Source: Candidatus Hydrothermarchaeales archaeon (GTDB lineage Archaea > Hydrothermarchaeota > Hydrothermarchaeia > Hydrothermarchaeales > JAZGAD01). From it: a stretch of 64,000 nucleotides of DNA. A model generated the notes under the pieces. That model had not been told where the DNA came from. It worked only from the letters and a program-made list of their open reading frames with translations, and ran no database searches. Both the position numbers and the translations under genes were made by a program. This document shows, in pieces, positions 25,353 through 58,610 of this stretch (the first letter of the stretch is position 1; every line of letters starts with the position of its first letter). The stretch is from the NCBI GenBank assembly GCA_036444275.1, contig JAZGAD010000014.1:1-64000 (forward strand), in the 5' to 3' direction.

Positions 25353-28300
25353 ATGAAGTTTAAACCTCCCAGTAGGATATTGGCAGCATGGATATTACCA
25401 TTTATACTAGCTTTAGCTATCTTTAGTTCTTTATTACAACCTTCTAGTAGTATTACTATACTAAACCCTAATGCTCATCCAAAGCTAGGGGACAACTGGA
25501 GCATCCACTTTTCTACCACAGGCTCTGGTATTCTGGAGATCTACGACCACTCCTTCCCAGAGGAAGTCGAGTTCATCGGCTTGTACGCCGAGATAGACGA
25601 TGAGTACAAGAAGGTCCAGGTGAGCATCAAAGGAGACTTGATAACTGCTAACTGGCACTACTCCTCTGGTGAAGCGATCTTCAAGGTTCTAACACCTCAG
25701 GAGCATTCTCTCGAGTTCAGGTTTGGAGAGCAGGTGGTCTATGCATACAACTTCGCTGACCTGCTTATCAACCTGACTGCTCCGTCTCAAGTCGCCAGGG
25801 GGCAGGTTATTGAGATTGGCGGTGAGGCAAGGAATCACGACTTGGCAGATGTCTCCTTGATCTATGTCTTGCCACAGGGCTTCGAGGTTGTTTCAGGCGA
25901 GAAGGTGAAGCACTGTGGAACCGGTTATCTTTGCGAGAGCAGTTTGGTTGTGGATACCTCTAAGGCAAAGCTTGGAGAAGGCGTAATAAAGCTCCAGGGA
26001 TGTGCCTACGGCGTATGTGAGAGCGAGAGCATTAACATCTTTGTGGATCGGGTGCTGACTGAGAAGGGGGAGCCTGTGCAGGAAGAGGTAGAGGTAGGCA
26101 AGCCTGTGCGCTGGAGGCAGCACATCCAGGTTAGGAATCCCCTGCATGCTCCTGTTTTCAATTATTCTCTGCCCCTGCCAGAGGATGCGTCTGGTATTGC
26201 TGCGCCGGTTATTGAGGAAGTTAAGCCTGGACAGAAACTAGGCTTCGACGTGATATTCTACACCGGGCCAGTGGAAGTAGAAGAAGAAGATCGTAACATT
26301 TCCCTGCGTTCTCTGATTCCAAAGAATGCCTTGAACATAAAGATAGATGGGAAGGTAGCTGACGCGGGCGCTCTAGATATTGAAATACCTGCTAAATTGG
26401 TTCGAGTGAAACATAATGCTTCGTTGCACTACCGCGATATACCTGTAAGCATAGGCGTTTCAACGAAAGAGGTGACAGTATTCTATGATGCCAATGCCGG
26501 GGTGCTGGATGTTAACTCTGGTCAGCTAGAAGTTGTGGAGGGCGAGGTTTTGGGAGATCAGCTGACTTGGGTTGTGCCCAAGCTCTCTGAGAAGAGGTAT
26601 TGGATAGCGCAGGTTCAAAGGACTCAAGGTAAGGCAGAAGTGAATAAGACTGTTGGTTGGACTCTGAAAGCCGGCGGTACAGTTGTCGAGTACGAGACGC
26701 CTGCGCCTGTTATGGAGGAGATACCGGTAGAGAATGGCACCCAGATGAGGGTTAAGAGCGATGTAAAGTACTCCAATGTAACTGCAACGGCTAGTGTTCC
26801 AGAGGGAAAGAATCGCACGTTACGCGTAAATGGGAAAGGGGAGTTTAAGTTTGCAGATGTGCCGAGCTTTGAGGTTGAGGCTACTGAAACGGGCCATGCT
26901 CTCTATTGGCTCAATGGAAGTGTAGAGCTCTTCAACGAGAGCAGGGATGTAACTAGCGATTCCGCGCATTCAGTTAGCTTCTTTGACGCTAACGGCAATG
27001 GCGTAAATGACAGCGTAACTTGGAACATACCCACCCTTTTGGAGCAAAATTACCTATTACAAGAGACAGCAAAGGTAGCGGAGATTCGAGCACGAGTCGA
27101 GGATGCCAAGGGCTATAGATTGCCGGTTGCTCCTGAGATCAGGCTTGTCGACGGGAAGTATAAAGTAACGATCCCGCAGGGCAGGGGGGTAAAGCCTGGG
27201 TTATACAAGCTCGTCGTTGAATCGGAGGCTGGTGTAGAGGAGCTGTGGTTTAAGTGGGGACTGATATCGATAAACACCAAGAAGAGTATGTATCATCCTG
27301 GCGAAGAAGCTGAGATACTAATGGTTGTACTGGACAAGGAGGGCCATCTCGTCTCTAACGCGGACGTCTCTTTTGTAGTTACTAATCCGATTGGTGTGCC
27401 TACGTTCTTCACGACGGACGATGGTTCGATCGTTGAAACTCAAAGGGGAATATACGAAGCAAGCTATCTAACTTTTCTGGAAAGCAATTATTCGCTCTTT
27501 GCCACTGCTAGTGCAGATGGGGTGGCAAGCACTATCAATTCATATTTCACAGTCAAGGAGTACTACGAGTTCGATATCCTAAGGGATACACCAGTGACCA
27601 TTGATCCTCAAAGAGGACCCTTTGATTCCTCTATAAAGGTGGTTTCATATACCGATGCATCTACTTTCACCCTGAGGGAATACTTACCGGCAGAATTTTC
27701 GATAGTTGATGCGGGCGGAGCTAAAGTTACTGTCGTCAACGACACGAAAGTATTGGAATGGAGCGATATTACCAATGGTTCAAAGGTTAGCTACAAGTTC
27801 AACACTCCTTACATCTGGCCTTACCTCTACATGATGGGACCGGCGGAAGTGGAGTATGCTTCTGGCACGTTTATAGAGGCAAGGCCGTGGATGCTGGCGG
27901 TTGATCCCTCAACTTGTGAAGGTAATACGTGCTATGAATGGTTTGAGGATACGCCGGGATATAGTGCTTCTGATGGTAGTACAGAAACTTATGAATGGAC
28001 ACCTCAGTCGTGTCCTGGGACATTAAACTGTTATATCCAAAATATCACGGTTAAGTTTAGGTTTACGAATCCATTTTCAGCGATCCGAACTGGGTTCGAA
28101 ATCTATTTTAGCAACATGTCTGGGGGAACAACGTATTATTACCCAGCATATCATGGGGCACTAAGTGCAGGAGGCCAAGTTGGTCCACAGTGGGCGTGTA
28201 ACTATACTGACAGTGCACAACCCTCAGGGTATTTAAATAACACCTGCAACTTAGCGCCGAGTGACGGATTTAACAAAACTACCCATAATGTAACTCTTGT

Positions 28301-31300
28301 TGCGCCGGGTAAAACCTTAACAGATGTATTAAACATAAAATACAAATGGGTCTGGACTCCAGCAATGCCACAATTGAGCGATGTAACCGTCACGCCTTCT
28401 TCCGCTGGTTGGGGAGCCCTCCGGAACTTCTCAGCATTTTACACAGACCCACAAGGCGACGCAGGCAACGTGACATTGTTCGCGAAGACCTCAACTAGCG
28501 GCTCCTTCACCTCCAAAAATCTGACAGCCATCACAAACGGTACGACCGCGTCGATATTTTACCGTTTTGACATCACCGACTTCGAAGCGCTCGGCGTCGG
28601 GTGGGAGTACAGGCTTAACGCATCTGACAATAATACTCCACCAAACTCCTACCTGACCAGTTCCTACACATTCACTGTCACCAAGGATGCCACCACCTTC
28701 CAGAACACAGAAGGCGACGGTGCCGTAATCAACCGCAGTGACTCTCTTCCAAACAATACTGTCCCTCTCTGGTCTTACATCTACGATATGGAAAATGAGA
28801 GTCTCGCACGTGCTAATTCCGCCGCAGGAAAAATAGAGGGGAGAATATGGATTAACAAGAACGCCAGCGCCGGATACGTGGGCACGGATGCCCACAGCGC
28901 AGAGACCGACAGTGATGGTAAATTCAAGGGCACCACAGAACTCTTCAACGCAAGCGGTTATTTCAACCCTGGCTGCACTTACACCACGGGTCAGCACGTC
29001 TGGTACGCTGAGACGCTGGCCCACACAAACTACACCCAGAACGACACCCTAGCCATCAACAGCGGCAACAACTACACGCTTTACATCTGGGGGACCCTGA
29101 GCAACTCCATAACATCGCCAGATCCACCCGGCAAAGAATATACGGTAGGCGAAAACGTGCCTCTCTACGGCACAGTCTATGATGATTGCAGTGTCCTCGT
29201 AACAGATGCAAATGTTACCTTCCGCGTGTACAATGCTACCCTTGGAGTAGATGATAACCTAACTGCGAGCTACAACCCTCCCCAGAACCGCTACGAAGCT
29301 TCCTGGAATTCCACGGGAAATAGTACTGGCATCTACCAGGTGGAGATGATATCTAACAAGAGTTACCACCCCGTGGACACCGCCCAGACGAACTTCACAC
29401 TCGTGGAGCTGATAACACTGAACTGGACCGTGGTTCAGGGAAATGGCTCGATCAGCAACAGAACAGGTGAAGAGATTAACACCCTGGTAGTGAGGATAAC
29501 CGATGACGCCACAAATCCGGTAACGAATGAGAACGCAACCCTCTGGATCACCTACGATGGGACCAACTCTATACAGAAAATCACCAACGAATCAAACAGC
29601 TCCGGATATCTCGTATATGATTTTAATGCGACCTGCGACCTCGATGTGGGTGAGCAGGAATGGAAATTGGTTATGCAGGACACAACCGAGTTCCAAAATC
29701 CGAACTCTTGGGATGATGGAAATGAGTATTACACGGATATATGGGGAACCACAACCCTTGATTTTGCTTATCCAATTGCCGGAATCTATGATATGGGTGG
29801 CCTGATAAGGCATGAAGGCTACGTCTACGACGACTGTGGCAGCGAGCTTGACGGTGCGACGGTCAATTTCACCATTGTCGGGCCGTCAACCAGTCCATCT
29901 CCATATTACTGCGAAAACGTCGAGGCGCCTCTAGCAGGCTTATACAAATGTAACTCTACCGCGGGGGAAGGTTGGGACTCATCTGGAATGGACGAGGGAT
30001 GGTACAACTCGACGATAAATGTATCCAAGAGTTACCACTACAACAACAGCGTGATAAAGACCAATGGAACCCAGTCTCTCTTCAACCTCCGGCTTACACC
30101 ACCTGACCTGTTCGACGCGGATGTCCAACCCAGAAAAGACGGCTGGGGCAAAAACTACACCTTCGCGGTTAACATCACCTATGCGGCTGGAAAAAACGTT
30201 AGCGTACTCCTGTACTATCAGCCCCAGTTGATGGAAGAAGAGCTTCTTGCATCCACCGGAAACTTTACCCTACCCTCATATACATATGCTGTCAACTTCA
30301 CCGATCAGACCTTTAACTCGACTCTGGTTGATAAGACTGTCAAATTCAGGTATGAGATTAAATACTATCCACCCGGTCTGGGTGAACAGAGCGTCTGGAC
30401 GACAATAACCGAGACGGGAGACTACAACCAGTCTAATACTACGGGTGTGGATGACAACGAGTTCTATTTGGAGAAGGATGATGTTCTCCTGAATTATTCT
30501 GCTGGGAATGAGTCCACCGCAAGCCTCCAGGTAGAAGCGACTTTTGTACTCCGCATCTGGGATATAACTCGGGGTGTCTGGATTAACGCGACCTCTACTT
30601 CTGTGAAGTTCAACGTAACTAAGAACTGGCCGAGTTCTGAAAATGTGACGGTGAATACTACGACGACGAATGCGACTGGCTATGCTTTTACGGATTTCTT
30701 GCCTGACACGAGCTACAGCTCGGGATTGCAGAAATGGTTCGGATATATCCCGGATACTGATCCCTATTACAAATTCAATGTCTCTGATATCTTTGATGTT
30801 AATCTTTCTATTCATCCACCGCAGCTCGTCAATGCCTCGGTGGATAAGACGACGGCTGGTTGGGGTGTGAATCGCACCTTCAGTGTAGAGGTAACTGATA
30901 CTGTGGACAACGCCACCGTAAGCCTCTGGAAGACTGATACAAGTGGATTCGTAGCAGATACAAACTGGACTTTCATAGCTGCGAAGAATTATACGGATGT
31001 CGGCAACTGGACGCAGCTTAACTTCACCACTAGCTTTTCACCGTCGGATATTGGGGGCTGGTATTACAAGTTCAACGCGAGCGACATCGCTGGAAACACC
31101 AATTATACTAGCGAGTCTTCCTATACTTTCACCGTCGACAAGGACGATGTTATCTTGGAGTACGTCCAGGGAGATGATTCCCCAGCGAATAGGTCTGACA
31201 ATCAAATCGACCGCTTGATCGTAAAGGTGAAGGATGAGAATGGCTCGTACATCGGTAATCTTAGTGTGACTTTCAAGGTGACCTTTGATGGCTCTATCTA

Positions 31301-52300: not shown

Positions 52301-55300
52301 CAACATCGGCCTGAACGACACTAACGAGACCATGTGGGATCCTGACTTATTGGCGCAACAGGATACCGGGGAGGACCTCCTCATCAATGCTACAGCCTAC
52401 AAGGACTACTACGACACGAATTCCGGCTACCTTTTTATAAATATAACCGGCACAGCCAACGTCTCCTGGGTCTCGCCAACACAGGGACAACAATATCCAA
52501 ATCCCTTCAACCTTACCTGCAACGTCACAGACAGTGTCTCAGGAGCAATCATCTCTGGATACAATGTTTCCTTCTGGTACAAATATCCAAATGAAAACTT
52601 CACCTACAATGGTACCATACCCACAGATTCCGAAGGAAATGCCACCTATATATGGACGCCTCCAAAACCAGGGGAACCCTATATGACCTTTATGTGCAAT
52701 ATAAGCGACTACACCGAGGAGAACTACAAGGCCTCCGACGACAAGAACTCCTCCTCCATGAACATTCCGGTAACAGATATGACGCCGCCCTTCTTCGACA
52801 CCTTCCTAGTCACGCCCAACGAGAGCATAGAGGCATGGGAGACGATAAACATAACGGTGAATGTTACAGACGACAAGGGGATAAATGTAGTCTATGTCCA
52901 GATCGGGGAATACAATGGCACCCTTCAGAACTACACAATGAATAACCTCACACCAGTTGAGCCAGACGAGCCAGCTATATACTTCTACAACTATACGCCC
53001 GAGTGGGGCGGAGACTACAACGCCACGATATACGCCGAGGACACGTCTGCGAGGAACAACGGCAACTGGTCGCATACTGAGTACTTCACTATATGGGGCA
53101 AGGCAGATGGAGTTACAGATAATACACCTCCACCTCCATCCCAAGTGGCACTCTATAACATATACTACGACCGCGGGCAGACCTTCAATTTGACCATAAA
53201 CTTCACAAACAATGGTGATGGCACAGCATATGCTGTCAACCTCACGATCTACGATAACCAGCCTACTTTAGTCATCAACTATACACCTAACTATAAGTAT
53301 CCTAACTATATGCAGCTGTATGACGTAAATGCAGGCGTTACGAACCTAACGGAGGTTAATGTCACGATACCAGCTGCAACTACAGCAAGAACTATTTATA
53401 TCTATGGAAACGTGACCTGGAGAAATCCTGATAAGACAATTAACTCGAGCATAGCGCAGACAGTCGTGCTGGTATATGAGAACCCGGTGCTAAACGTTAC
53501 CGACGACTCCTATCAGCCAGAGTTGCAACTGGAAGACGTCCGCCATGGAGATAAGAAGGAGGGCACAGTAATAGTGCAGTCCATCGGGAACGCGAACATC
53601 AGGAATATCAACATATCAAGGGACGATGGAGCGCTGGACAACCTCGGTACCGATTGTCCGTACTGCAATGTAACCTTCAACGACGATACTGTATACAGCA
53701 TCCCCAGCCTACCCTTAGGCGTAACCTCTACGGTTACAGTAGTCGTGGATGTGCCTTTCGGTCAGGCTCCAATGTCGTACACAAGCCACATAAAAACAAT
53801 ATCAGAGAATGCAGCGGCAAAGACCATTCTTATGAATGTTACTGTGGCAGGGAATGCAACGTGGTATGCTGAAACGTCGTATGCCGACCCCAGTACACTC
53901 GGCAATATAACCGCCTTCCACCCCAATCAAAGCGGGTACACCAAAGGCACTATGGGCAAGATCACTCTTACAAATATAGGCAACGTGAGGATATCCTATG
54001 CGATTACAGTCCCGCATAAAAACACCGAGATGAATGGAACCACGATAGAGGTTAATGGCCAGTATCCACCGGATCCAGTCTCGATCCCTGAGCCCTACCT
54101 ACAGCCTGCTGGAACGAAGCGTACGCTGGAGATAAACTACACCATCCCAACTACTGCCGATAGAGGGCTGTACTGCAAGAATATAATGATAGATGTAACT
54201 AAGGCAGAGCCCGTAAAGGTTGAAGACGCGAAGCCGTTTTCACTCAATATTCCCTTCTGCCTTGAGGTAACTGACCCGAAGTACAACTGGAGCCATTCCA
54301 AGACAAACATCTCCATGGAGGTCATACAGGGCACAGACGGCTTCCTCGGCACCTTGAACATAACCAACCTCGGGAATGTCGAATTTTACTTGGAGGTGAA
54401 CAAATCCGTCGAGATCATAGCTGTCTCCAATCTCACCCTAGGCCTAGGTGTTAACAAGACCCAAGAGGTATCCTTGAACTACTCAGCTCCAGTAACTCAT
54501 GAGCTAAAGAACTATACGTATTACTTCAAGACCGTGAATGCATCAGGAGAGCCAACTGAGAGGATAACGTACATCAACCTAACGGTCCAGCCCTACTTCA
54601 TAAACATAACCCAACCCACAAAAGACGCTCAGAAGAAGGGCGTGTTCGGTGGCGATGAGATTCTTATCAGGGTGAACGTGACCTATAATGGTACAGCGGT
54701 AAACGACACGGGCGATATGAACTGGATTGTAACGCTGTTCAACAGCACCTACTCGAAGGACTATACTCCATCTGCTCCGCTTGATGAAGTTTACGACAAT
54801 GTAACTGAGCAATTCAACCTCACCATACTTGTCCCCAATATAGCCCAGAGGGCCTATGATTTGAAGGTAACAGCCACTTACTCACCAAAGAACCTTGTGC
54901 TCGCTGATGTCGAGAATGATGCCATAGTCTATAATGATACTATCGACCCAGTGCTTAACCTGGTGGTGCCAGGAGAGGTAACCGTGGGACAGTCCGTGGA
55001 AATCCTCCTGAACGTGACAGACGCTGGATCGATAAATGAGTCGACGGTAAGCGCGAACATAACGGATCCCAATCAAATCACCTTCGATCTGAACATGAGC
55101 TCTATCGACAAACAGGGCGATACTTACCGGTACAACAACGTATCCATCCCAACCCTGGAGGGCACCTACACCATAGATGTCACGGCCTGCGACGTAAGCG
55201 GACGTTGCGCGTCCAACAGCACGTCCTTCAACGCCTACATAAAGGTAGACATCAATGGCACTGCTAAGGATTCAACTAGTCAACTCGCGGAGGTCAGCTT

Positions 55301-58300
55301 CAAATTCTATGACAACGGCACCACTAATCTCGCCCCGAATGGTAGCTTCAGCAATAACGTGACTGAAGGATACTCCCGCACCTTCTACGCAAGGTTCTAT
55401 GACCTTGAGATAAGTGCGTTTGGCCATGTCATAAAATTCGAGAACCTGAATGTGAGTGACCACTTGAACGATCCAATACGCCTCGACGAGTTCAAGGAGG
55501 GCGATATCTCAGAGAACAACTTGAATCTACCTCTCGGAAGAAGGCTTCTGAAAGGCATTGGGGTTAAGACCAACTTTACGAATCTGACTACGGAGAAGGT
55601 GACTTTGATCCTCAACTACTCCGGTACAGTGCCAAATGATGAGGACTCGATAAAGATATACAGGTGCCCTGGCTCAAGCTGGACCTTCGAGCCAGATAGC
55701 GCGAGGGGATGCACAAACTGGGAGGAACTCGGAGGTACCCCATACAAGCCGGCGCAGACCATACAATTTGAGGTTGAAAACTTCTCAGCCTACGCTATCA
55801 CCGAGGAAAAGCCAACAGTGCCTCAGATAACTCTTACCGCTCCAACGGGCGGCGAGACATGGGCCGACAATCAGAGCATTACCTATACCTACTATGATCC
55901 AAACGGCAACAACCTGGATGTCTACATATGGTATAGCAACGACTCCGGTGCGACATGGAACTATATATATAATAAGACTTACACCGACACTGGTACTCAG
56001 AAGACAGGTTCCTATTCTTGGGATACTACAAGCAGACCAGATGGAAGCTACCTGATCAACATCACCGTCACAGATACAGATGGAATGACGAATGAAGACA
56101 TCTCTGGAGCTTCCTTCACCATAGACAATATCGACGATGATCCACCTACGGTAACCCTCACAAAGGAGCCCTCGGATTCGACGTGTTCCCAAGACCTATT
56201 CTTTGAGGGAAAGGCAATCGATGCGAGATCAAACATCAGCGCAGTAGAATACCGGGTGGACGGCGGCAGTTGGATAAACGCTACTCCAATAGATGGTGCC
56301 TTCGATTCCCTAGAAGAAGAGTTCAACTTCACCACAGGTACCCTATCCTTCGAGAGCCATGCCATCGAGATCAGGGCTAACGACAGTTCTGGCACATCTG
56401 GGTATTCAACACCCCTCTACAAACCCAAAGAGGTTACGAGGGCCTGCCAGGAGATAAAAATACCCTCCGGCGGAGGTGGCGGTGGAGGTGGCGGTGGAGG
56501 CATCTCCCCCACCTGCGGTAACGGCATTTGCCAGCCAGGTGAGAACAGTGAGAACTGCCCACTGGACTGCGCACCCACAAACGCGACGAACGCATCAGTG
56601 ATCATGCAGAGGGAGATAGAGCGCCTACGTGAACAGCTCGAAGAGATCAGGCAGACGATAAGTGATACCGCGAATGAAACCGCTGAGAGGGTAAGGACGA
56701 TGCCTACGATTTCTCCCTTCACGATACAGACGAATCTCGCTGAGGTAGAGCTTCATCCAGGAGAAGAGAAGTGGTATTCCATCTGGATAAGCAACCACTT
56801 GAGCAGGGACCAGAAGGCAAGGCTCTCAGCCATGGGCGTTGGAGCGCAGTTCATCGAGATGTACGTAGATAGTGTCAAACTCTTCACCGAGGCGACTGTC
56901 ACCCTAAAGCCGGAGAGCACGCAGCACATAAAGGTCAGGGTCTATTCCCTGCCGACAACGATACCAAGCATATACACTGCCGATATCCTTCTGAGGGTAA
57001 ACGGCCAGAACCATACCATACCTGTGACCATAACTATAACGCCTGAGAGAGAAGCCCTGCTCGATGTCAAGGTAGAGGCGCTGACCAAGAGGCTCACTCC
57101 AGGGAAGCTCATCAAATATCACGTCTCGCTTTACAATCTCGGCTTCAAGAAGAAGTTCGATGTGCACATGGTATACAAGATAAAGGACGTCGAAACAGAG
57201 AAACTCATCGACTGGTACGAAGAGGAGCTAGCCCTAGAGACGACGCTCTCCTTCGTGAAAACATATCCAATGGAGAACCTCACCCTCTCAATCGGCAGTT
57301 ACTTCATTGAGATAGAGGCGATATACGAGAAAAATAGGACCGCTTCTGCAGCTGATATATTCGAGATAGTGCAGCCGTTCTGGAATAGAACGAGGAGGCT
57401 GGGTGTTCTAGCTCTCATCCTGCTCATTACTGCCAGCGCAGCTGGATATAGAGCTAGAAAATGGTACTTAGCCCAGAAACTCGCGAAGGCCAGATACCTG
57501 TTCCCAGTCGCGGAGGATAAGCTCCCCAAGGGCGAGCTCTGGCTCGGCAAGATAGCTGAGACAGACATCAAGGCAACCTTCGATATGGACGACCTCATGG
57601 TGCACTGTATCACTGCTGGTGCAACCGGCTCTGGAAAGAGCGTCTCGGCCATGGTAATAGTTGAGGAGGTATTGAAGCAGAATATACCGGTAATAGTCTT
57701 CGATCCAACCGCGCAGTGGACAGGCTTCGTTAGGCCGTGTAGAGCAGAAAAGATGCTTGCTTTCTATCCCAACTTTGGGTTGAAGGAGACTGACGCTAGG
57801 CCCTTCAAGGGTATGATCTTCGAAGTGACTGATCCCTTCGAGATGGCTGATATAGACTACCGCAAGTACATGAATCCAGGCGAGGTAACAATATTCGCCT
57901 TGGACAAGCTCGAGCCGCAGGAGTTCGACAAGGCGGTAAAGAACATCATTGACGCGCTTTTCAAGATATCCTGGGAGGAGTCGCCTCACCTCAAGGTCCT
58001 TATAGTGATGGACGAGGTCCATAGGCTGCTTGAGAAATACCTGTCGATGGGCGGCATAGTCTCGGAACTGGAGGGCTATAAGTCCATCGAAAAGGCATGC
58101 AGAGAGTTCAGGAAGTGGGGTATAGGAATAATCATGGCCTCCCAGATATTGTCTGATTTCAAGGAGACACTTAGAGGAAACGTCATGACTGAGATACAGC
58201 TCTTTACAAAGGCAGAGGAGGACCGGCAGAGGGTAGCTGACAAGTACGGCGCAGAGTACGCCCAGAGGATAACCAAACAGGAGGTGGGCGTTGCACTCGT

Positions 58301-58589
58301 GCAGAATCCGAAGTACAACGATGGTAAGCCCTACTTCGTCAACTTCAGGCCTTTGTTGCATTCGCCCCACAAGATCCCTGAAGCGGAGCTCGAGACATAC
58401 AAGAAATATGATGCGAGGTTACGAAAATGCGAGCTAATAATAGATGATATGAAAGCGAAAGGGATAGATACTTTCGACCTCGACCTCGAACTCAAGCTCG
58501 CGAATGACAAGCTCAAGCAGGGTGCGTTTAGGATGGCCGAGATCTACGTGGAGTCATTGGAGGGCAACGTGGAAAGGCAGATGAGGTAA
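25353..58589 (+). CDS. Giant 11,078-aa surface protein: signal sequence, repetitive extracellular beta-rich region, TM helix and cytoplasmic HerA/FtsK/VirB4-like (DUF87-type) ATPase
   Basis: Uninterrupted 33.2-kb ORF. N-terminal hydrophobic segment (ILAAWILPFILALAIFSSLL); repeated GWG / DDCG / GxQxW modules; poly-Gly plus CGNGICQPGENSENCPLDC; TM LGVLALILLITASAAGY (about 57400-57450); HCITAGATGSGKS, PVIVFDP, LIVMDEVH, REFRKWGIGIIMASQ. Confidence 0.92.
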   Translation: MKFKPPSRILAAWILPFILALAIFSSLLQPSSSITILNPNAHPKLGDNWSIHFSTTGSGILEIYDHSFPEEVEFIGLYAEIDDEYKKVQVSIKGDLITANWHYSSGEAIFKVLTPQEHSLEFRFGEQVVYAYNFADLLINLTAPSQVARGQVIEIGGEARNHDLADVSLIYVLPQGFEVVSGEKVKHCGTGYLCESSLVVDTSKAKLGEGVIKLQGCAYGVCESESINIFVDRVLTEKGEPVQEEVEVGKPVRWRQHIQVRNPLHAPVFNYSLPLPEDASGIAAPVIEEVKPGQKLGFDVIFYTGPVEVEEEDRNISLRSLIPKNALNIKIDGKVADAGALDIEIPAKLVRVKHNASLHYRDIPVSIGVSTKEVTVFYDANAGVLDVNSGQLEVVEGEVLGDQLTWVVPKLSEKRYWIAQVQRTQGKAEVNKTVGWTLKAGGTVVEYETPAPVMEEIPVENGTQMRVKSDVKYSNVTATASVPEGKNRTLRVNGKGEFKFADVPSFEVEATETGHALYWLNGSVELFNESRDVTSDSAHSVSFFDANGNGVNDSVTWNIPTLLEQNYLLQETAKVAEIRARVEDAKGYRLPVAPEIRLVDGKYKVTIPQGRGVKPGLYKLVVESEAGVEELWFKWGLISINTKKSMYHPGEEAEILMVVLDKEGHLVSNADVSFVVTNPIGVPTFFTTDDGSIVETQRGIYEASYLTFLESNYSLFATASADGVASTINSYFTVKEYYEFDILRDTPVTIDPQRGPFDSSIKVVSYTDASTFTLREYLPAEFSIVDAGGAKVTVVNDTKVLEWSDITNGSKVSYKFNTPYIWPYLYMMGPAEVEYASGTFIEARPWMLAVDPSTCEGNTCYEWFEDTPGYSASDGSTETYEWTPQSCPGTLNCYIQNITVKFRFTNPFSAIRTGFEIYFSNMSGGTTYYYPAYHGALSAGGQVGPQWACNYTDSAQPSGYLNNTCNLAPSDGFNKTTHNVTLVAPGKTLTDVLNIKYKWVWTPAMPQLSDVTVTPSSAGWGALRNFSAFYTDPQGDAGNVTLFAKTSTSGSFTSKNLTAITNGTTASIFYRFDITDFEALGVGWEYRLNASDNNTPPNSYLTSSYTFTVTKDATTFQNTEGDGAVINRSDSLPNNTVPLWSYIYDMENESLARANSAAGKIEGRIWINKNASAGYVGTDAHSAETDSDGKFKGTTELFNASGYFNPGCTYTTGQHVWYAETLAHTNYTQNDTLAINSGNNYTLYIWGTLSNSITSPDPPGKEYTVGENVPLYGTVYDDCSVLVTDANVTFRVYNATLGVDDNLTASYNPPQNRYEASWNSTGNSTGIYQVEMISNKSYHPVDTAQTNFTLVELITLNWTVVQGNGSISNRTGEEINTLVVRITDDATNPVTNENATLWITYDGTNSIQKITNESNSSGYLVYDFNATCDLDVGEQEWKLVMQDTTEFQNPNSWDDGNEYYTDIWGTTTLDFAYPIAGIYDMGGLIRHEGYVYDDCGSELDGATVNFTIVGPSTSPSPYYCENVEAPLAGLYKCNSTAGEGWDSSGMDEGWYNSTINVSKSYHYNNSVIKTNGTQSLFNLRLTPPDLFDADVQPRKDGWGKNYTFAVNITYAAGKNVSVLLYYQPQLMEEELLASTGNFTLPSYTYAVNFTDQTFNSTLVDKTVKFRYEIKYYPPGLGEQSVWTTITETGDYNQSNTTGVDDNEFYLEKDDVLLNYSAGNESTASLQVEATFVLRIWDITRGVWINATSTSVKFNVTKNWPSSENVTVNTTTTNATGYAFTDFLPDTSYSSGLQKWFGYIPDTDPYYKFNVSDIFDVNLSIHPPQLVNASVDKTTAGWGVNRTFSVEVTDTVDNATVSLWKTDTSGFVADTNWTFIAAKNYTDVGNWTQLNFTTSFSPSDIGGWYYKFNASDIAGNTNYTSESSYTFTVDKDDVILEYVQGDDSPANRSDNQIDRLIVKVKDENGSYIGNLSVTFKVTFDGSIYDTGTANNTNTSGYAIYNFNPGCSSPKYGVGVQNWTAVSSETNAYKSNSSSIYNLTIWGDNVITFDRPAPYPTGYYAVGDRVPFRVLIKDECGDELGKNEDSDKEVKFYAIGPDTSPQTYDCGTVSSSLTGLYECESAAGGWNTTGKSAGDYNATADVSLAYYYINNSINNRIVPERDNLTLASGSGWFRLYVPSQPPDLTAADVNPRKDGWGKNRTFSVNVTSPKSGKNITVVLEVKKSGEDYAQIGDAQNWTSGGTGSSKILEWNVSFYPANVSVLPYKFKFTATDEDLEEDVTNIPAEYTNTTPLEGIDENEFKIEKDDVLLNYTAGNGSLVNLQVEATFVLRIWDITRGVWVNTTSASVKFNVTKNWPSSENVTVNTTATNATGHAFTDFLPDTSYSSGLQKWFGYISDTDPYYKFNVSDIFDVNLSIHPPQLVNASVDKETAGWGVNRTFSIEVRDTVDNATLSLWRSSQIVGQPWYLIAEKNYTDVGNWVQLNFTTSFSPSLIDTWYYKFNASDIAGNTNSTDVVSTRNFTIDKDDVILEYVQGDDSTANRSGNQIDPLIVKVRDENGSYVGNLSVTFKVTYDGSNYDSGTPKDTNGSGYAIYNFDPVCTPTKYQVGVQNWTAEVLETNAYKSNSSSIYNLTVRAEFNNTITKPPGNENYTLGDTLTFQAVIRDDCNDNLDGVTANFYASNATVEYDCGNVTLILSGTGIYECTWASGLAEEGWYNVTLNTTLGNYHYYSDTTKYDQPGLFYLLFKEQPPDLNSANVTPRKDGWSLNRTFTVNVTSPKNGKNVTVWLELKKGGGSYNPEGDEQNWTSGGPGSFSILEWNISFSSTDVDLWFFKFQAKDADGVTDTTSLTESGDYVNDTNEFNVEKDDVNISYIYGNETEIATLSNPSTFILKICDEDANTCNLTPSAKVKFNVTKDGIGTDYYAARGTDGNDYNYTNGTGHVVFEFLPDTSWNSTKQSWIGYVVDDYYNFTTSGTYNVTVDLNKNPDILNETVNGVTEDAKQGWGFVFNFSVMVKDDKNTNTTVELWVDTANTTGSTYKKVNETLCESCGSDWKEINLTVRFNSSDIGPASYYFKAIDNTSNPNQTTSHAFTIEEDEVTFEVSPGSNGTNVIVNRSAAQGNLRLAVRLRDENTSYVGANASTTLYVTTSGSTFDSGRDIDTNASGYVNYDFLPTCSNPEYEVGLHNWYVKVKDSDSLYQPNQSEYYVFRVIGTLSNTITEPLGSPTYNQWQTILLEGNVYNYCGEGIEINNTLAGENLTFTLINGTNNYTCTDIVKSGVNTYKCYWAPFASNAIRGWYNLNMFSNKSGYYANETTRLNSFYLQTPPKLEDAKVDPTDEGWGYTFNFSVNVTDNIDDNVTVTFYDKRSGDESWTLVSEQNWTADGTTGRLYWNKSYASTYAGETMYFKFDADDTEGFDDTIGGVGESWEFKLRKDDVELLYIQGNESVVDRLGAQTTRFILYANDTDRAAQAYPPAATVYFNVTKDWENYTAATNLTGQNYNYTNASGYVTLDFNATCEQNVGKQKWIGYILNDDAYKDNVSAEFNVTVVGDLINNITQPDGEEYNQTDPVPLRGRVTDECGNSILGINDTVTFTVSNGTANYLCTPVEDQGNGYYNCTFDTNLSMAPGWYNITMNSSAGDNYNNATLTKQAFRLTPGNVEPYLSDAQVTPASEGWGITRNFSVEVMDLNSDDVNVILFLSPDGTNWVEIGNDTCPGCSNWQTLTFPYSFSRENYSTNNTWQFRFNASDGNVTVTLSNTTGAILERDNVSVVLDQGDGAIVNRSGDQTVSPILRLQVVDNDNSSITVAADVTGRFYVTVDNSSWGSAINKNTTTGGNLSLDFNPNCTSPKYYTGVQQWRGETNGDFYYDDNSSINYTLYIYGELIATIDQPNGTQTYAPGQNVTMEFNVVDECGDNVTGMTPQNFTVNLTHSNYSDLCTNIQVVGNGSYNCTWNSSGAVGGNYTIAIDLGKDYYNSNSTTRQDAFSINVAPTLENVGVDPTSNYWGTTFTFNVTVTDEDDTVTLKLWHRCISSLGTSDSCDSIRDWTQVDTTETCPDCTAELRQFTNTTGDTSVGIWEWFINATDQDGNEVNTTPENYTVTKRGVIISYNNKGNNSWVNRSDNNVTVLEVRMRDAENPTGWLTSSDGNGFYRVTTNGSNWGPNMTGAQLDSQGRLKGPGGADFEFDPTCTSPTYQTGEQKWSAVFNGTKKYYYNESANYTLYIRDYLINNITYPDGEPFDKNTYMDLNGTVVDSCGGVDNSTANVVFGFIRNLTGASVPPSCGAPTNPSGGNYTCNESLANDNFGYYHVWMNTTVNDYPYHPNITLYREFVFKVAATPELKDPVVAPTLQGWGYNFAFNVSYRDNEDLSGENNNISLYKAYNQSGPWYLIETKNEDYWTTTFKNITYYSTFNKSDLDNATAADGVIYFFFNATDTNSFTDNTTVKNFTIERDNVTVVATSGEGENVTRLGSGTILLQVQINDNDTAGQPAVAGANGSIFIIGVNKTTNITDASGYLSYNLNPGCSPLYPAGLNYWTGGIDGDAYYFDRNSSPNSNFTVIGQLYNNLTEPLQPTYNVTENITIKFYVTTDCSGEGNQTVSGRTITLIHNQSGANSSCGTINYNPADATYNCTWDPTGKPEGNYTIIINTSNQSFNSVSATWTNRFELINQPPVVDAVNLTVDPDEGGWGATYLYKVFVEDPEGDDVTCTLYVNTTGSWVEKGSNTTTGGVGNCSVTVDGFNKSDYDYNVTQANPISFMFEINDTGSNEPFNTSDTVGQVYQPALQEDNIQIIHIQGNNSEVNRSGVQATTFILLVNDLDKGTYLSNPNVTVKFNITTDGSNYQLDGSNFTNSTGYAIYNFDPNGTYDVGVQNWTAFVEGDTYYANNASAVFNVTIYGIFETLDAGPFNFSSNTFDKTYPRGENVTIRGNVTDDNSTLVSGATVNFTLVRNGVYYGCMPPIANGEGNGSYNCTFETGGKPAGWYNLSMNVTKGDFYYENTTIFEEFLFVETSPVLTNPQLNTSKNGDNIGGWGEKFNFSVVVTDEDGDTVYAVLWTRRNASYSWTEIENKSCTNCNNTVVYHEETGAYSCNKFDDSDLGTWEFKWNATDVASYPSTGDGDVYTNETVNESYTVEKDNVSVTLVSGNNETVWRNGSDSETLTVLVYDIDKEENPTTQAKGAIWVTTTTFNGSLEGTSYVSVFNDYANPSGQLTKNFDPSCSYEVGWQHWIGGTYGSECYMDANSTQGPFNLTMKSYLEGVVQNVNQTPPYYEVSEKINITFYVNDDCEGTYGGMGGADVIKLNLSSGGWSNEYTTGFIDYGNGTYVYEWDSAVGVYGWYNTSLELNQSYYYNKTGGDDNVTFDREELFYLDTRPLLQTAAVNQTDNGWGETWKFTVECKDSDGDPANLTLWKRLQDSPASEWEYVDSQTCSNTGFELKTFIETFNYTDITPAGNVTNYKFNISDPYDYGSELIGPEDITVEPDDIGYTTVVGDEEGVDRLGNDTVRLAILVVDQDRGNTPVLEGTGMTFNITSDYVTYDTIYPATVNSTGWMNLDFNATCTHLAGQQKWIGDEADYRYKGIPFGAFDVFVTGQLYTDLITPPDGQPYNVSDPVPTNLSVFTDCAPEGNVTGATVTIGFSPNETSWENFTATDGGDGYYNVTWDSTGNIEANWSIIANASLSNYTDNVTKWSSRFELINQPPVVDAVNLTVDPEEEGWGATYIYTVFVDDPEGDDVTCTLYVNTTGSWVEKGSNTTTGGVGNCSVTVSGFNKSDYDYNLSNPISFMFEINDTGSGEPFNTSDKVGAIYAPSFQEDNVSITYYGGDNGTTITRKLQSATFIFNTTDTDSGGVAYNASGAVWVTKTGSSDWDSGTSDTTNASGYLIVEIAPGCDYDTGVRNVMGGINDTYYEDVNTTESLMITLTGGMSLQAWSQNESDDQDQTIYRDDNLTIKANITDECGAQVDGVNVTFTLSNGSQNFTCSVNNESNGIYNCTIETNSTMSAGWYNMTLNSTKQNFAPNTTLFKNFLFIETEPVLTGAVVNSSQNGDNTGGWGETFTFNVTASDEDGDNMTVCLYLSKNGESFWQEYCNSTVNGINQLVSRDRIFPDDSWMGNWEFKWNVTDDGDDPITGDTKYNDTTLNISFIVERDDLSILEEDGDEATVSRLGDNKTLLNVSIRDIDKLENVSGFQDLLTKAYVTLDNYTWDWGKTKSVSGDYRYIEFNPNCSYSVGEQKWKFVTGDITEYKPTESDNYTLYITSILVPNLTEPQGGIYIKDSQDVIINATVEDYDTDCDPVDDSTVNFTFTNLDGTKYYAETTTPTVTSLGEGNYTYNLTAARNDGMKYGWYNVTVHANRSYYSNDEVVNYTVYKAFKLTSIPKFDPEDIVFTVPSGSGYYWGEPWTISVNIRDYDNDNVNVTLYKRKVGETSWDYLNDSLCDNDCQNTKTISFVQNFSCADRGDIEWNVTLTDLNNFTVSTTENQSINKDLSYVTHEFGGGETVNRTGLNKLPMIVRVADKTRGYVLVGSGVNGSFYITNGTDNVWAERYTNQTNTSSRLTLFFDPTENYTLGNQYWDGGVEGDNCYTNKNISTGNQTFNIKGQLLINMEQPTTNVTPVIVNDNVTIRFNVTTDAAWEGYQNETTSVDVQLSRDGSSVACTYGPYNEGNGSYNCTWVTVTLDGGMWNMTITVSKSPNYNTNVTLFENWFNLSNTKPNATDINVTPSTGGWGRNFTYRVFVNDSQQANVTCALYTNTTGDFVYKGNDTVAGGLGNCTINVTFSPDDITPSAEFYFVIDDGTEGNKFNTSTQTGPIIERDNITIAFVYNSTDEVNRSGTNSITFIFFVNDTDRQEGAYTPNATVGLYVTTDGENYSLANTSYTNSSGYVTFVFDPDDTYNAGVQDWKANVTGDYAYKDASTGVFNVRIWGDLGYQFEQPLGERIMRGQNVTVRLNVTDERATPVLISNASVEILLTSNRTGDDFTCQVENETSPAGIYNCTFLTNSSVPTGAYNITLTAKKSYYNNISTDIEYVFGVSSFFLETKPALESPTVVSRMANGSIGDGGWGEDWTFSVNVTDIDLDNVTVKLWLNLTGTWSDEGTAYVVGENQTVSFTFNDTDNVITSSHIGNRSFKFNITDSRFANETDIVNFTVYRDDVGFAVVSGNGSANRSSRPSFLLRVQMWDADTGDPVGTFRNARFYYTKDGNTSNYYTYSTNTGPGGEYAENTLDLSSIVKSCAYTIGPQYWFVDYNYDLASDSELKETNSTLYNWTLITDPLVVSIVSPVDEESRLKGVDSVNLTGRVTDDCVSELGGVENATVVFKIVGLSTTDTFTDVTNGSDGWYNYTINDTSGYQYGKYNVTMNVSKQYYNSTVEVEVDAFALASVPEVSGLDAEDDPSVNSYATESSWGEVWVFSATVKDADYGNGNVTLWVNNSGSWIPQNSTLRSFTSAGIGVSFKEYSLFTGDDVGVQYFKFNATDNYNYTDEKMANVTVNPDDLYIDYVSGGGDTVNREGSGTVRFIVTAYDKDRIMYLGAGRNGSFWVTTTGVVSGPRDSGTVNYTNGSGYLILDFDPDSNVHGVGTQYLDGGIYGDSWYVDRNLSQDDVTNYPVTIVGQLKVNLEQPYDPSGQYEAIVTDNITIRFNVSTDNTSMGPASDLQADATTSVEIIDFDGNVLPSACSSAGEGNGWYNCTWDTSIGGLLEGNYSIRINSSFTPNYNPNSTTYINLTRLINTEPNGTIANTTLNVTPPAGGWGENFTFTVNVSDTQGDNVTCILFVTTDNGTTWMTKGEKLITDTKPENKKICEINTTFTSDDITYSNNATFKFQLNDSTEGNIYNTTNGSGPVIEPDNVTVSYVFGGLRVNRTSDGSSSVPLILRIYDNDTEGYVPQGVNGTIWITVNGSDYDPGNSNLTNDSGYLIYNFTPSCSNYDLGVQYWIGGATDPAYERKNTTQNFTFEIQGVLETAITAPTGQPRYLKGSQNATLKGTVKECSADPNVDDANVTFKLTAKLTNQTYQCTGTLLSTGTYKCDLDFAAMDAGWYDVKMNSSKAYNYNDSVTSTDVFFVVSKPELSDANVTNRTGGWGERFTFTVNLTDEDEDNVTVGLYLNKDESWELKNSTSVIGNGSNQTVTLTYAGFTLSDMGVWEFYLNATDNSTCSPFCPNTVTTPVDNFTVEEDDVRFEVVAGDGEMVWRNGSASATRTLEVQVFDDDRNVSIDGPKLNFWITVNGTDWRLEQGGEGGDSNGYVDINFKPTCANGYQVGIQDWKVETTGTTLDYYKAVNSTNYSIKVQGELNLSILIPKYPSSYLAGTSVPLSGKVIDDCGADMDNTSTSVTYTFKRGGSEYSNSTTIYVGNGTYNSSWDNPPTVYGYYNLTMTVSKSYYGINSTKELNATFISSKPWLDDDTADLDFESGGDGGWGEDFTFSVQVFDNDLNEVNVSLWKRQQLEDGNWSNWSLIDSAMKNDTQWTYFTTSFTSSDMGLNSWKFIAVDTWNYTNETTVKNFTILPNDIEIKQYAEPGAVGRLLSPQTLGVKFKDSDRNEYTNGINGTIYITEKGYDTDHNWTYECVSENVGIFNGVCAVEYPPNCTSTIGIQNWIVELTDPRYKTPINYTKNITVKGQLNTTILTPSEDNTSVNRNTSVVLKVNVSDECKNTIDTAQVSWKNETEDEIAINDTKDGINGTYIATWNISGTYKLGPETIYATASSVDNYYDANFDTNYSDNIGVLVYGWSYIKTMSPANGTEVRAGNNQQVTCTVYDNSTGQSISDYNVSFYVDGVYRNSTTTVGATATWTWYVNTSHGNKNVSCDITDDSELYYNITSPNENSTIIKVDRPLLIDSISVSPDSIWRNDSFWPTKPIETTITVHVWDADLGNAVNATVWFNISDEINNISWSQTNSTGYANITYNPPYNLTPGMHPIRINATPANESLIAASATNLTEVQVRGVLNVNITAPPDPLLEFSFKKSETIWLNATVTSENGDVVNATVKWFNVSTVNIGLNDTNETMWDPDLLAQQDTGEDLLINATAYKDYYDTNSGYLFINITGTANVSWVSPTQGQQYPNPFNLTCNVTDSVSGAIISGYNVSFWYKYPNENFTYNGTIPTDSEGNATYIWTPPKPGEPYMTFMCNISDYTEENYKASDDKNSSSMNIPVTDMTPPFFDTFLVTPNESIEAWETINITVNVTDDKGINVVYVQIGEYNGTLQNYTMNNLTPVEPDEPAIYFYNYTPEWGGDYNATIYAEDTSARNNGNWSHTEYFTIWGKADGVTDNTPPPPSQVALYNIYYDRGQTFNLTINFTNNGDGTAYAVNLTIYDNQPTLVINYTPNYKYPNYMQLYDVNAGVTNLTEVNVTIPAATTARTIYIYGNVTWRNPDKTINSSIAQTVVLVYENPVLNVTDDSYQPELQLEDVRHGDKKEGTVIVQSIGNANIRNINISRDDGALDNLGTDCPYCNVTFNDDTVYSIPSLPLGVTSTVTVVVDVPFGQAPMSYTSHIKTISENAAAKTILMNVTVAGNATWYAETSYADPSTLGNITAFHPNQSGYTKGTMGKITLTNIGNVRISYAITVPHKNTEMNGTTIEVNGQYPPDPVSIPEPYLQPAGTKRTLEINYTIPTTADRGLYCKNIMIDVTKAEPVKVEDAKPFSLNIPFCLEVTDPKYNWSHSKTNISMEVIQGTDGFLGTLNITNLGNVEFYLEVNKSVEIIAVSNLTLGLGVNKTQEVSLNYSAPVTHELKNYTYYFKTVNASGEPTERITYINLTVQPYFINITQPTKDAQKKGVFGGDEILIRVNVTYNGTAVNDTGDMNWIVTLFNSTYSKDYTPSAPLDEVYDNVTEQFNLTILVPNIAQRAYDLKVTATYSPKNLVLADVENDAIVYNDTIDPVLNLVVPGEVTVGQSVEILLNVTDAGSINESTVSANITDPNQITFDLNMSSIDKQGDTYRYNNVSIPTLEGTYTIDVTACDVSGRCASNSTSFNAYIKVDINGTAKDSTSQLAEVSFKFYDNGTTNLAPNGSFSNNVTEGYSRTFYARFYDLEISAFGHVIKFENLNVSDHLNDPIRLDEFKEGDISENNLNLPLGRRLLKGIGVKTNFTNLTTEKVTLILNYSGTVPNDEDSIKIYRCPGSSWTFEPDSARGCTNWEELGGTPYKPAQTIQFEVENFSAYAITEEKPTVPQITLTAPTGGETWADNQSITYTYYDPNGNNLDVYIWYSNDSGATWNYIYNKTYTDTGTQKTGSYSWDTTSRPDGSYLINITVTDTDGMTNEDISGASFTIDNIDDDPPTVTLTKEPSDSTCSQDLFFEGKAIDARSNISAVEYRVDGGSWINATPIDGAFDSLEEEFNFTTGTLSFESHAIEIRANDSSGTSGYSTPLYKPKEVTRACQEIKIPSGGGGGGGGGGGISPTCGNGICQPGENSENCPLDCAPTNATNASVIMQREIERLREQLEEIRQTISDTANETAERVRTMPTISPFTIQTNLAEVELHPGEEKWYSIWISNHLSRDQKARLSAMGVGAQFIEMYVDSVKLFTEATVTLKPESTQHIKVRVYSLPTTIPSIYTADILLRVNGQNHTIPVTITITPEREALLDVKVEALTKRLTPGKLIKYHVSLYNLGFKKKFDVHMVYKIKDVETEKLIDWYEEELALETTLSFVKTYPMENLTLSIGSYFIEIEAIYEKNRTASAADIFEIVQPFWNRTRRLGVLALILLITASAAGYRARKWYLAQKLAKARYLFPVAEDKLPKGELWLGKIAETDIKATFDMDDLMVHCITAGATGSGKSVSAMVIVEEVLKQNIPVIVFDPTAQWTGFVRPCRAEKMLAFYPNFGLKETDARPFKGMIFEVTDPFEMADIDYRKYMNPGEVTIFALDKLEPQEFDKAVKNIIDALFKISWEESPHLKVLIVMDEVHRLLEKYLSMGGIVSELEGYKSIEKACREFRKWGIGIIMASQILSDFKETLRGNVMTEIQLFTKAEEDRQRVADKYGAEYAQRITKQEVGVALVQNPKYNDGKPYFVNFRPLLHSPHKIPEAELETYKKYDARLRKCELIIDDMKAKGIDTFDLDLELKLANDKLKQGAFRMAEIYVESLEGNVERQMR
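30471..33250 (+). repeat. Intragenic duplication with 1,782-nt offset
   Basis: About 30471-31470 recurs at about 32253-33250 with long near-identical tracts (e.g. GATCCCTATTACAAATTCAATGTCTCTGATATCTTTGATGTTAATCTTTCTATTCATCCACCGCAGCTCGTCAATGCCTCGGTGGATAA). Confidence 0.9.
39335..42740 (+). repeat. Intragenic duplication of about 330 nt with 3,081-nt offset
   Basis: ELINQPPVVDAVNLTVDP...CTLYVNTTGSWVEKGSNTTTGGVGNCSVTV...ISFMFEINDTGS is encoded at about 39335-39660 and again at about 42416-42740 with high nucleotide identity. Confidence 0.85.
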
Positions 58590-58610
58590 TTAAAGAAACA
58601 GGTGCGTGCT

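Follow-up and report, generated by a model that had tools for sequence, protein, structure and literature searches.

The giant gene and its protein

The window analysed in this study is the first 64 kb (64,000 nucleotides) of contig C14 (84,069 nucleotides) from a Candidatus Hydrothermarchaeales archaeon, whose draft genome comprises 1.486 Mb in 61 contigs and is 81% complete. Analysis of this window revealed a gene of 11,078 codons whose product is predicted to be an extremely long surface fibre ending, behind one transmembrane helix, in an ATPase. The window contains no N letters and the translation of 25353..58589 contains no internal stop codon. An open frame of 33 kb is impossible by chance. 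The original prediction of a single 33.2-kb open reading frame is thus borne out. The calculated mass of the protein is 1,225.5 kDa and its isoelectric point is 4.3; the whole protein contains 128 cysteines. The features of the giant gene are as follows.

25353..58589, forward strand: giant gene, 11,078 codons plus stop (open reading frame list, translation and collinear ortholog in genome G005)
25353..25451, forward strand: signal peptide, about residues 1-33, with basic n-region (K2/K4/R8), hydrophobic core at residues 9-27 and SSS before the mature end
25452..28352, forward strand: distal head, about residues 34-1000, non-repetitive
28353..51302, forward strand: repetitive stalk, about residues 1001-8650, super-repeat of about 335-340 residues, Pfam matches to MG2, Big_1 and PITM1-3
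51303..56468, forward strand: proximal stalk, residues 8651-10372, non-repetitive, beta-sandwich domains (Big_7, Big_13, NEW3 and filamin-like matches)
56469..56501, forward strand: run of 11 glycines, residues 10373-10383, hinge that joins the stalk to the conserved core
56514..56570, forward strand: cysteine motif CGNGICQPGENSENCPLDC, opening the core module
56715..57368, forward strand: two membrane-proximal beta-sandwich domains, residues 10455-10562 and 10570-10672 (AlphaFold2)
57387..57488, forward strand: transmembrane helix, residues 10679-10712 in the model, hydrophobic core 10683-10701 (hydropathy and AlphaFold2)
57537..58352, forward strand: cytoplasmic RecA-like ATPase of the HerA/VirB4 clade, residues 10729-11000 (Pfam, alignment columns and fold search)
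57618-57641, forward strand: Walker A, GATGSGKS, with lysine K10762
57690-57707, forward strand: VIVFDP
57999-58022, forward strand: Walker B, LIVMDEVH
58107-58121, forward strand: FRKWG, with arginine R10920
58134-58145, forward strand: (M)ASQ, with ASQ itself at 58137-58145
58380..58583, forward strand: C-terminal helical tail of three helices, residues 11010-11077 (AlphaFold2)

Hydropathy analysis (Kyte-Doolittle, 19-residue window, threshold 1.7) identified only two hydrophobic segments among the 11,078 residues, at residues 9-27 and at residues 10683-10701 (57399-57455). The second segment is flanked by NRTRR on the outside and by YRARKW..KLAKAR on the inside, and it separates an ectodomain of 10,655 residues from a cytoplasmic part of 377 residues. 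Comparison of the two parts revealed 655 N-x-S/T sequons in the ectodomain against about 188 expected from composition. No sequon was found in the 377 cytoplasmic residues, a zero that is not significant alone because only 0.7 were expected. The composition also shifts markedly across the membrane, with asparagine falling from 9.5% to 2.7% and serine plus threonine from 19.2% to 7.2%. Hydropathy, sequons and the structural model together support the predicted anatomy, namely an export signal, a giant sequon-rich ectodomain, a single transmembrane helix with basic flanks and a cytoplasmic ATPase.

Self-comparison of the ectodomain by BLAST in 200-residue chunks showed offset peaks at about 330, 670, 1010 and 1350 residues in the stalk, which holds about 22 super-repeats of about 340 residues. 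The youngest copies are 72-86% identical to each other, and the exact repeat number is therefore uncertain. The head showed no internal repeats in the same comparison. Of all parts of the ectodomain, the head is the most conserved relative to the ortholog in G005 (42% identity over residues 9-1350 by BLAST), and among named clusters the Atlas search gave no usable match for residues 28-1000, where Pfam yielded only a weak MG2 match. Pfam searches of the ectodomain (whole protein at E ≤ 0.01; ten pieces at E ≤ 0.05) detected beta-sandwich families only (MG2, Big_1, Big_7, Big_13, PITM1-3, NEW3 and filamin) and no enzyme. Many unrelated contigs match the polyglycine run and nothing else of the gene. 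The cysteine motif CGNGICQPGENSENCPLDC that follows it is also found behind the N-terminus of short family members (about 620-730 residues) in the consensus of alignment A1, which comprises the window core and 69 relatives (70 sequences). The conserved core extends over about 640 residues from this motif to the end of the protein and is the region most conserved with G005.

The surface-ATPase fusion in other genomes

Genome G005, one of 40 relatives, comes from a different family within this order; its assembly has 20 contigs and is 97% complete. It contains an open frame of 10,846 residues (C9:1094312..1126852) inside a contig of 1,917,514 nucleotides, and this frame ends in an ATPase 61% identical to that of the window. 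BLAST comparison revealed that the two giant proteins are collinear end to end; they share 36-37% identity in the stalk, and their last 643 residues are 56% identical. Synteny is kept as well: G005 has counterparts of the two downstream genes, here named cc1 (44%) and cc2 (35-37%), and of the divergently transcribed upstream gene for a surface protein of 1,842 residues (40%). A Logan contig of 3,387 nucleotides from another public run covers 56527-59800 at 97.5% identity with 82 differences, and its sole indel is of 2 nucleotides at 58592, just past the stop codon. A different strain thus keeps the proximal ectodomain, transmembrane helix, ATPase, stop codon and cc1 in one piece.

A HMMER search with the last 412 residues against 1.84 billion representatives identified 986 relatives, of which 354 reach E ≤ 1e-30. 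Those listed, 150 in number, are 356 to 7,878 residues long and match at or near their C-terminal end; the ATPase ends within 60 residues of the C-terminus in 87 of the 150.

Four independent lines, namely the collinear ortholog, the kept synteny, the independent contig and the HMMER relatives, support the fusion, which is judged to be real and not an assembly artefact. The alternative, in which the gene is dead, the ATPase was misjoined to a surface protein or the repeat region was mis-sized, is very improbable. It draws on the draft state of the genome and on stalk repeats up to 86% identical, which short-read assemblies may collapse or expand. Against it stand the same fusion within the 1.9-Mb contig of G005, its presence in nanohaloarchaeal genomes and in the majority of the 150 relatives listed, the independent contig that crosses the junction, and 33 kb free of stop codons. 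For the junction, the artefact reading is largely refuted. Hence, the archaeal gene of 11,078 residues is real and, as read from its sequence, encodes a putative glycosylation-ready surface fibre with one transmembrane helix and an internal P-loop ATPase.

Motifs, fold and class of the ATPase

All five motifs named in the original prediction (GATGSGKS, VIVFDP, LIVMDEVH, FRKWG and ASQ) were found intact at their named or implied positions. Analysis of the 70 aligned sequences of A1 revealed that Walker A, the DE of Walker B, the arginine of FRKWG and SQ are invariant; the invariant alignment columns are the Walker A residues, D349/P350, E453/H455/R456, R482/E483/R485 (FRKWG region) and S495/Q496. 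This strict conservation of catalytic and arginine-finger residues shows that hydrolysis matters.

Single-sequence AlphaFold2 prediction of the last 412 residues was unusable (pLDDT 42.4) and was replaced by an alignment-based model from the 70 sequences (m506936e170af; pLDDT 90.8, pTM 0.67). In this model, beta-sandwich domains occupy positions 20-127 and 135-237, the transmembrane helix 244-277, the RecA-like domain 294-565 and the C-terminal helices 575-642. Only about 17 residues lie between the transmembrane helix and the first RecA-like strand at position 294. This leaves no space for a HAS barrel, in agreement with its predicted absence, and the direct succession of helix and RecA-like domain likewise means that the N-terminal domain of VirB4 is absent.

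The expected match to DUF87/HerA-like families was obtained with the Pfam DUF87/HerA central domain (E 2.1e-10; 41.5 bits against a cut-off of 23.2), covering only profile positions 3-61 of 220. HerA_C, FtsK_SpoIIIE and TrwB_AAD_bind gave weaker Pfam matches, of which TrwB_AAD_bind is borderline (20.7 bits against 20.5), and T4SS-DNA_transf is below its cut-off (16 against 20.1). The best NCBIfam match is CedD (E 1.7e-12), which scores 46.8 bits where the cut-off is 600 and aligns mainly over the P-loop region. All other NCBIfam models considered here are also below cut-off: the HerA models NF040937 (30.6 bits against 800), NF040819 (16 against 970) and NF042944 (20.4 against 850), the VirB4/TraC-type models NF045975 (18.6 against 590), NF045971 (15 against 325) and TIGR02746 (14.3 against 567), CedB (19.2 against 700) and TraD (25.5 against 366).

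Sequence search of the Protein Data Bank identified HerA 4d2i (E 1.1e-4), and Foldseek ranked S. solfataricus HerA first (E 1.2e-14). Structural comparison with VIA-align also placed HerA 4d2i at the top (Z 26.6, 253 residues aligned, root-mean-square deviation 2.8), followed by T. kodakarensis HerA (25.1), anti-phage HerAs (20-25), the C-terminal domain of DndH (DndH-C, 24.1), VirB4 4ag6 (23.3, 238 residues aligned), TrwB (19.0), FtsK (17.9), TcpA (17.7) and EssC (17.4). Motifs, Pfam matches and fold scores (Z 17-27) thus agree with the earlier placement in the FtsK/HerA/VirB4/TrwB superfamily with a RecA-like fold. The ATPase represents a family of its own, placed in the HerA/VirB4 part of the FtsK-HerA superfamily, with HerA nominally closest and VirB4 about 3 Z units behind. 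To judge from the profile scores, it falls outside the curated definitions of HerA, VirB4, CedB/CedD and VirD4.

The claim that this is not the repair HerA also holds, given the missing HAS barrel, the scores far below the curated HerA cut-offs, and the lack of nurA, mre11 and rad50 among the window's scanned open reading frames. In those frames, which do not include all small ones, no partner gene of the NurA, Sir2/DUF4297, Mre11 or Rad50 type was found. The two downstream genes match Rad50/SMC models through their coiled coils only (17-56 bits against cut-offs of 567-1087). An ordinary HerA-like gene of 515 residues lies elsewhere in the genome, on contig C33.

Distribution of the family

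Named relatives are mostly from metagenome-assembled genomes of DPANN archaea (Aenigmarchaeota, Woesearchaeota, Pacearchaeota, Nanohaloarchaeota, Nanopusillaceae and Micrarchaeia), with a few labelled Hadarchaeota, Heimdallarchaeaceae, Thermococcus, Methanosarcinales or Hydrothermarchaeaceae; the annotations of these relatives read DUF87, DUF853 or 'helicase HerA-like'. The aEF-2 encoded in the window's genome shares 83% identity with one labelled Hydrothermarchaeaceae; further matches are labelled Hydrothermarchaeales, and Methanobacteria come next at 63-66%. One open reading frame of G020 is identical in every residue to a protein labelled Hydrothermarchaeaceae. Among 38 Hydrothermarchaeota genomes the family was found in four, namely both genomes of the window's family and two of the four of family f5; the window query did not find it in the other 34. 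In the nanohaloarchaeal phylum it was found in 27 of 70 genomes. One nanohaloarchaeal genome contains an open frame of 7,869 residues that ends in an ATPase 49% identical over 406 residues and is followed by a paralog of 637 residues. Other nanohaloarchaeal open frames include ones of 9,433, 8,891, 8,592 and 8,315 residues, each beside a paralog of 623-677 residues and with an ATPase 46-50% identical to that of the window.

Long and short paralogs stand in tandem at 6 of 27 loci, in G001:C115 and in nanohaloarchaea. G001, the window's family-mate, has two tandem short paralogs of 673 and 687 residues (C115:783-4008, locus L018), with ATPases 43% and 47% identical, and a contig-cut long copy (76%, C36). 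No short paralog was found in the window genome, which is 81% complete. A tree, built by a quick search only, gave two fully supported pairs, the window genome (G000) with G001 and G005 with G020, unresolved relative to the DPANN clades. In G041, L022 and L027 the long and the short copy of the same genome group as sisters, and in L037 they do not. Since they are sisters in three of the four genomes with both forms in the tree, the length of the ectodomain is labile, on a core that stays constant. The core also exists alone as short members, and the giants are this core with an ectodomain added N-terminally.

The downstream coiled-coil genes

The giant gene is followed by two genes on the same strand.

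58602..60266, forward strand: cc1, 554 residues, cytoplasmic coiled coil; the ATG at 58611 is the likelier start
60268..62334, forward strand: cc2, 688 residues, coiled coil; its start abuts the cc1 stop codon

The co-oriented trio of giant gene, cc1 and cc2 forms the operon, with cc2 last, after which the strand flips. The N-terminal 200-270 residues or so of cc1 are conserved at 26-41% identity, and GELR is invariant across 21 sequences. Synteny was assessed in 27 loci from named genome records, of which three (L025, L044 and L045) have no downstream room. Of the 24 testable loci, 19 have a cc1 homolog directly downstream of the last ATPase gene, as does G005, and it was not seen in the five others with downstream sequence (L021, L022, L030, L031 and L032). 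cc2 was not found by BLAST in the 27 other loci, and its ortholog was found at the same place in G005 only. No Pfam family was detected for cc1 at E ≤ 0.001; a profile search of the Protein Data Bank gave generic coiled coils only (best E 0.002), and the Atlas search gave unnamed clusters only, with Nanobdellota and Woesearchaeota as the commonest taxa. Complex prediction for the ATPase (residues 10713-11078) with cc1 residues 1-215 returned a score of 0.00, which counts neither way. On the evidence of conservation and gene order, cc1 is a coiled-coil partner gene.

cc1 has a conserved coiled coil at its N-terminal side and a short conserved helix at its C-terminal side, and between the two it carries a repeat rich in proline, glutamic acid, valine and lysine at about residues 400-470 (59800..60020), with units such as VEPK and IEPK. 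This repeat recalls the elastic PEVK segments of muscle titin.

Other genes in the window

The second surface protein, of 1,842 residues, is encoded divergently from the giant gene (16732..22260, reverse strand). It has a signal peptide, N-x-S/T sequons at very high density, matches to MG2 and NEW3, a Pro/Thr linker, a C-terminal transmembrane helix and a short basic coiled tail; the ortholog beside the G005 giant lies at the same position in an open frame of 1,731 residues.

An open reading frame of 79 residues (25084..25323, forward strand), winged-helix-like by eye, ends 30 nucleotides before the giant gene and has a 55%-identical copy about 1.7 kb upstream of the G005 giant; it may be an operon regulator. 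The AT-rich gap of 1,952 nucleotides upstream of the giant gene also contains an abutting gene pair (23529..24193, forward strand). It consists of an open reading frame of 85 residues with an AbrB/SpoVT-like start followed by a PIN-like one of 135 residues, and has by eye the look of a VapBC-type toxin-antitoxin pair. No copy of this pair was found in the 50-kb G005 region. Rfam gave no match in 22000-26000 at E ≤ 0.1.

Three KaiC-family genes in a row and a PAS-domain protein gene (13915..16669 and 22678..23400, reverse strand) sit between ribonucleotide reductase genes and the surface-protein island; one KaiC-family gene is fused to a small Ras/Arf-like GTPase domain (387 residues). At 5666..12374 (forward strand) lie two paralogs that encode large subunits of ribonucleotide reductase with ATP-cone domains (722 and 699 residues), followed by the gene for an anaerobic NrdD-type reductase (655 residues). 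The closest matches of the second paralog (8083..10182) in genome records are mixed bacterial and archaeal, which suggests a history of transfer.

Comparison with known systems

The closest described counterparts are the SPEARE proteins of Nanohaloarchaeota, which are very small archaea living as symbionts. In the passages of Hamm 2019 (PMC6642349) considered here, these are up to 8,553 residues long and mostly extracytoplasmic with a transmembrane helix near the C-terminus, have short versions of 655 and 717 residues, and have relatives in Woese-, Aenigm- and Micrarchaeota and Altiarchaeales. Their most conserved part is cytoplasmic; it was taken for a restriction enzyme by the authors, who also suggested DNA handling by it (PMC6642349). 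Proteomics detected the protein, with ectodomain peptides most abundant in gel fractions above 315 kDa and transmembrane and cytoplasmic peptides only below (PMC6642349). Laminin-G, serine-protease and toxin-like ectodomain parts described there were disputed by Reva 2023. In passages of Reva 2023 (PMC10266531), giants of 9,409 and 8,880 residues consist of a Sec signal, about 75 Ig-like domains, a transmembrane helix, a cytosolic VirB4/TraG-like ATPase and a coiled-coil tip; a second ATPase gene adjoins the giant gene, and a 'straw' resembling a type IV secretion system was proposed.

The window giant shares with these proteins the signal, thousands of ectodomain residues (Ig-like in SPEARE), one C-proximal transmembrane helix and a P-loop ATPase that is cytoplasmic and conserved; the existence of short paralogs (about 620-720 residues) and an ATPase 46-50% identical to those of nanohaloarchaeal frames of 7,869-9,433 residues add to the likeness. 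This comparison rests on nanohaloarchaeal open frames of matching size and arrangement, not on the published accessions (NAR1_1133, SVXNc_0300, BNXNv_0298 and AOV94740.1). Because their size class, arrangement and ATPase match the published descriptions, the window giant is assigned to the known family, and its SPEARE-type membership and anatomy can be stated with high confidence. The novelty of architecture implied by the original prediction is therefore not upheld, the same architecture having been in print since 2019 (PMC6642349; PMC10266531). There are nevertheless differences: the window giant has 11,078 residues against 9,409, 8,880 and 8,553, its host belongs to Hydrothermarchaeota and not to DPANN, no adjacent short paralog was found in its genome at 81% completeness, and the coiled coil is encoded by separate genes (cc1 and cc2) where the giants of Reva 2023 have a fused tip.

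Comparison with HerA, a hexameric ATPase of archaea and bacteria that serves DNA-end resection or anti-phage defence, revealed the best fold match (4d2i), DUF87, the Walker A and B motifs and the arginine finger, as well as a motif where HerA carries FDxHGEY. Unlike HerA, the window ATPase has a transmembrane helix in place of the HAS barrel, has no NurA, Mre11 or Rad50 neighbours, and reaches only 16-31 bits in equivalog models with cut-offs of 800-970. With CedD/CedB and VirD4/TrwB it shares an N-terminal membrane anchor followed by a cytoplasmic ATPase of the FtsK-HerA superfamily, but those proteins have no ectodomain, and no Ced or type IV secretion partner genes lie near the window giant. 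Its likeness to VirB4 is in the fold of the C-terminal ATPase domain (4ag6), and it differs in lacking both the VirB4 N-terminal domain and a type IV secretion gene context. Among the top-ranked papers listed, none reported such a giant protein for Hydrothermarchaeota, and a separate literature search found no paper on DUF87 in Nanohaloarchaeota.

Proposed mechanism and alternatives

A Sec signal would export about 10,650 residues of N-glycosylated beta-sandwich repeats, running from a unique head through about 22 super-repeats to a proximal stalk that is again unique. The ATPase, as its superfamily suggests, would form a ring under the membrane, and several fibres, or a mixture of long and short subunits, may share one base. 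Once the fibre binds a target cell or surface, ATP hydrolysis may move a polymer (DNA or protein) or rearrange the base, by analogy with the family, while cc1 and cc2 might tie the ring to a cytoplasmic scaffold. As an account of identity and anatomy, leaving mechanism aside, this is probably the correct explanation. That contact-linked translocation of DNA or protein would be the motor's job, in whichever form, is possible and is put at clearly less than an even chance.

Several observations weigh against the proposal. Among the datasets listed for 55800-59800, none is an RNA dataset. The operon has no substrate, channel or pilin gene, which weakens the transport readings, and with only one transmembrane helix in each subunit there is little to build a pore from. 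In Hydrothermarchaeota, which are not known as host-attached, the family is scarce, so that the reading of a 'grip on a host cell', drawn from nanohaloarchaea, might not carry over. Pfam found no laminin-G, protease or toxin-like domain in the window giant. Finally, none of the tails behind the ATPase in the 150 listed relatives matches cc1 (BLAST at 1e-4; hidden Markov model of the cc1 N-terminus), so that no fusion links cc1 to the ATPase.

The ring ATPase may instead mainly bundle and hold the fibres and link them to an elastic cc1/cc2 scaffold, with ATP serving to assemble, tension or release them and nothing crossing the membrane. The conserved partners are long coiled coils, cc1 has its Pro/Glu/Val/Lys-rich repeat, and charged, P/E/K-rich or coiled tails lie behind the ATPase in 63 of the 150 listed relatives, all of which favours this mechanical anchor, as do an operon free of channel-forming and substrate genes and an ectodomain of adhesin-typical beta-sandwich domains only. 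It is nevertheless held to be rather unlikely. Against it, the top-scoring solved relatives are HerA, DndH, VirB4, TrwB and FtsK, which act on DNA or protein as translocases or as assembly motors; the evident importance of hydrolysis fits both transport and anchorage. Import of DNA from a bound cell by a membrane-anchored ring, as with CedB/CedD of Sulfolobales, is held to be unlikely. CedD is the best NCBIfam match and is described in passages of PMC11823120 as a membrane-bound HerA-FtsK ATPase with an N-terminal transmembrane helix, essential for DNA import; the DNA handling suggested in Hamm 2019 (PMC6642349) points the same way. The low CedD score over mainly the P-loop region speaks against it, as does the lack of CedA- and CedA1-like genes among the scanned neighbours and of any DNA-binding domain detected by Pfam in the giant protein. 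A fibre acting as a straw through which a VirB4/TraG-like ATPase pushes effectors into a host cell is improbable. Here the C-terminal domain of VirB4 comes close in fold and TrwB_AAD_bind scores at its cut-off, but HerA ranks above both VirB4 and TrwB, the VirB4 N-terminal domain is absent, the VirB4/TraC-type models stay at 14-19 bits against cut-offs of 325-590, and Pfam and NCBIfam scans of the window's larger open reading frames found no VirB6, VirB8 or pilin-like genes. No conduit formed by a string of Ig-like domains is known. This injector was proposed for nanohaloarchaea in Reva 2023 (PMC10266531), and no host is known for the phylum of the present organism.

Significance for the family

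Among the genes of cultivated nanohaloarchaea, those for SPEARE-type proteins stand out most, and it is disputed whether these proteins serve as an invasion tool or as a secretion straw. This study finds the design outside DPANN, in a phylum whose published genome studies, in the portions available, deal with carbon use and element cycling; an explanation that depends on a host-parasite setting is therefore not sufficient. The comparison also separates a constant core of about 640 residues from a freely expandable ectodomain, and cc1 emerges as a conserved cytoplasmic partner open to biochemical study.

The archaeal proteins called largest in passages of the two papers have 9,409 residues and, for halomucin, about 9,000 (PMC10266531, PMC6642349). 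At 11,078 residues the window giant exceeds these published lengths, the longest of the 150 listed relatives (7,878) and the nanohaloarchaeal maximum found (9,433). The lineage (Hydrothermarchaeota, outside DPANN), the size and the cc1 partner are possibly new; Table S3 and Fig. S17 of Hamm 2019, on relatives in other phyla, may already include lineages beyond DPANN.

A further interpretation is offered tentatively, as more doubtful than probable. The core (cysteine motif, two beta-sandwich domains, transmembrane helix and HerA-clade ATPase) together with cc1 may be an unrecognised archaeal cell-envelope machine that is not confined to DPANN symbionts. Its ATPase rings would carry one to six fibres of any length and would couple fibre contact to an ATP-driven event inside the cell, in which either DNA or protein is taken up or exported or an elastic scaffold is put under force. 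If this is true, the presence in Hydrothermarchaeota and the synteny across two families would mean that the machine serves general cell-cell or cell-mineral contact, not parasitism.

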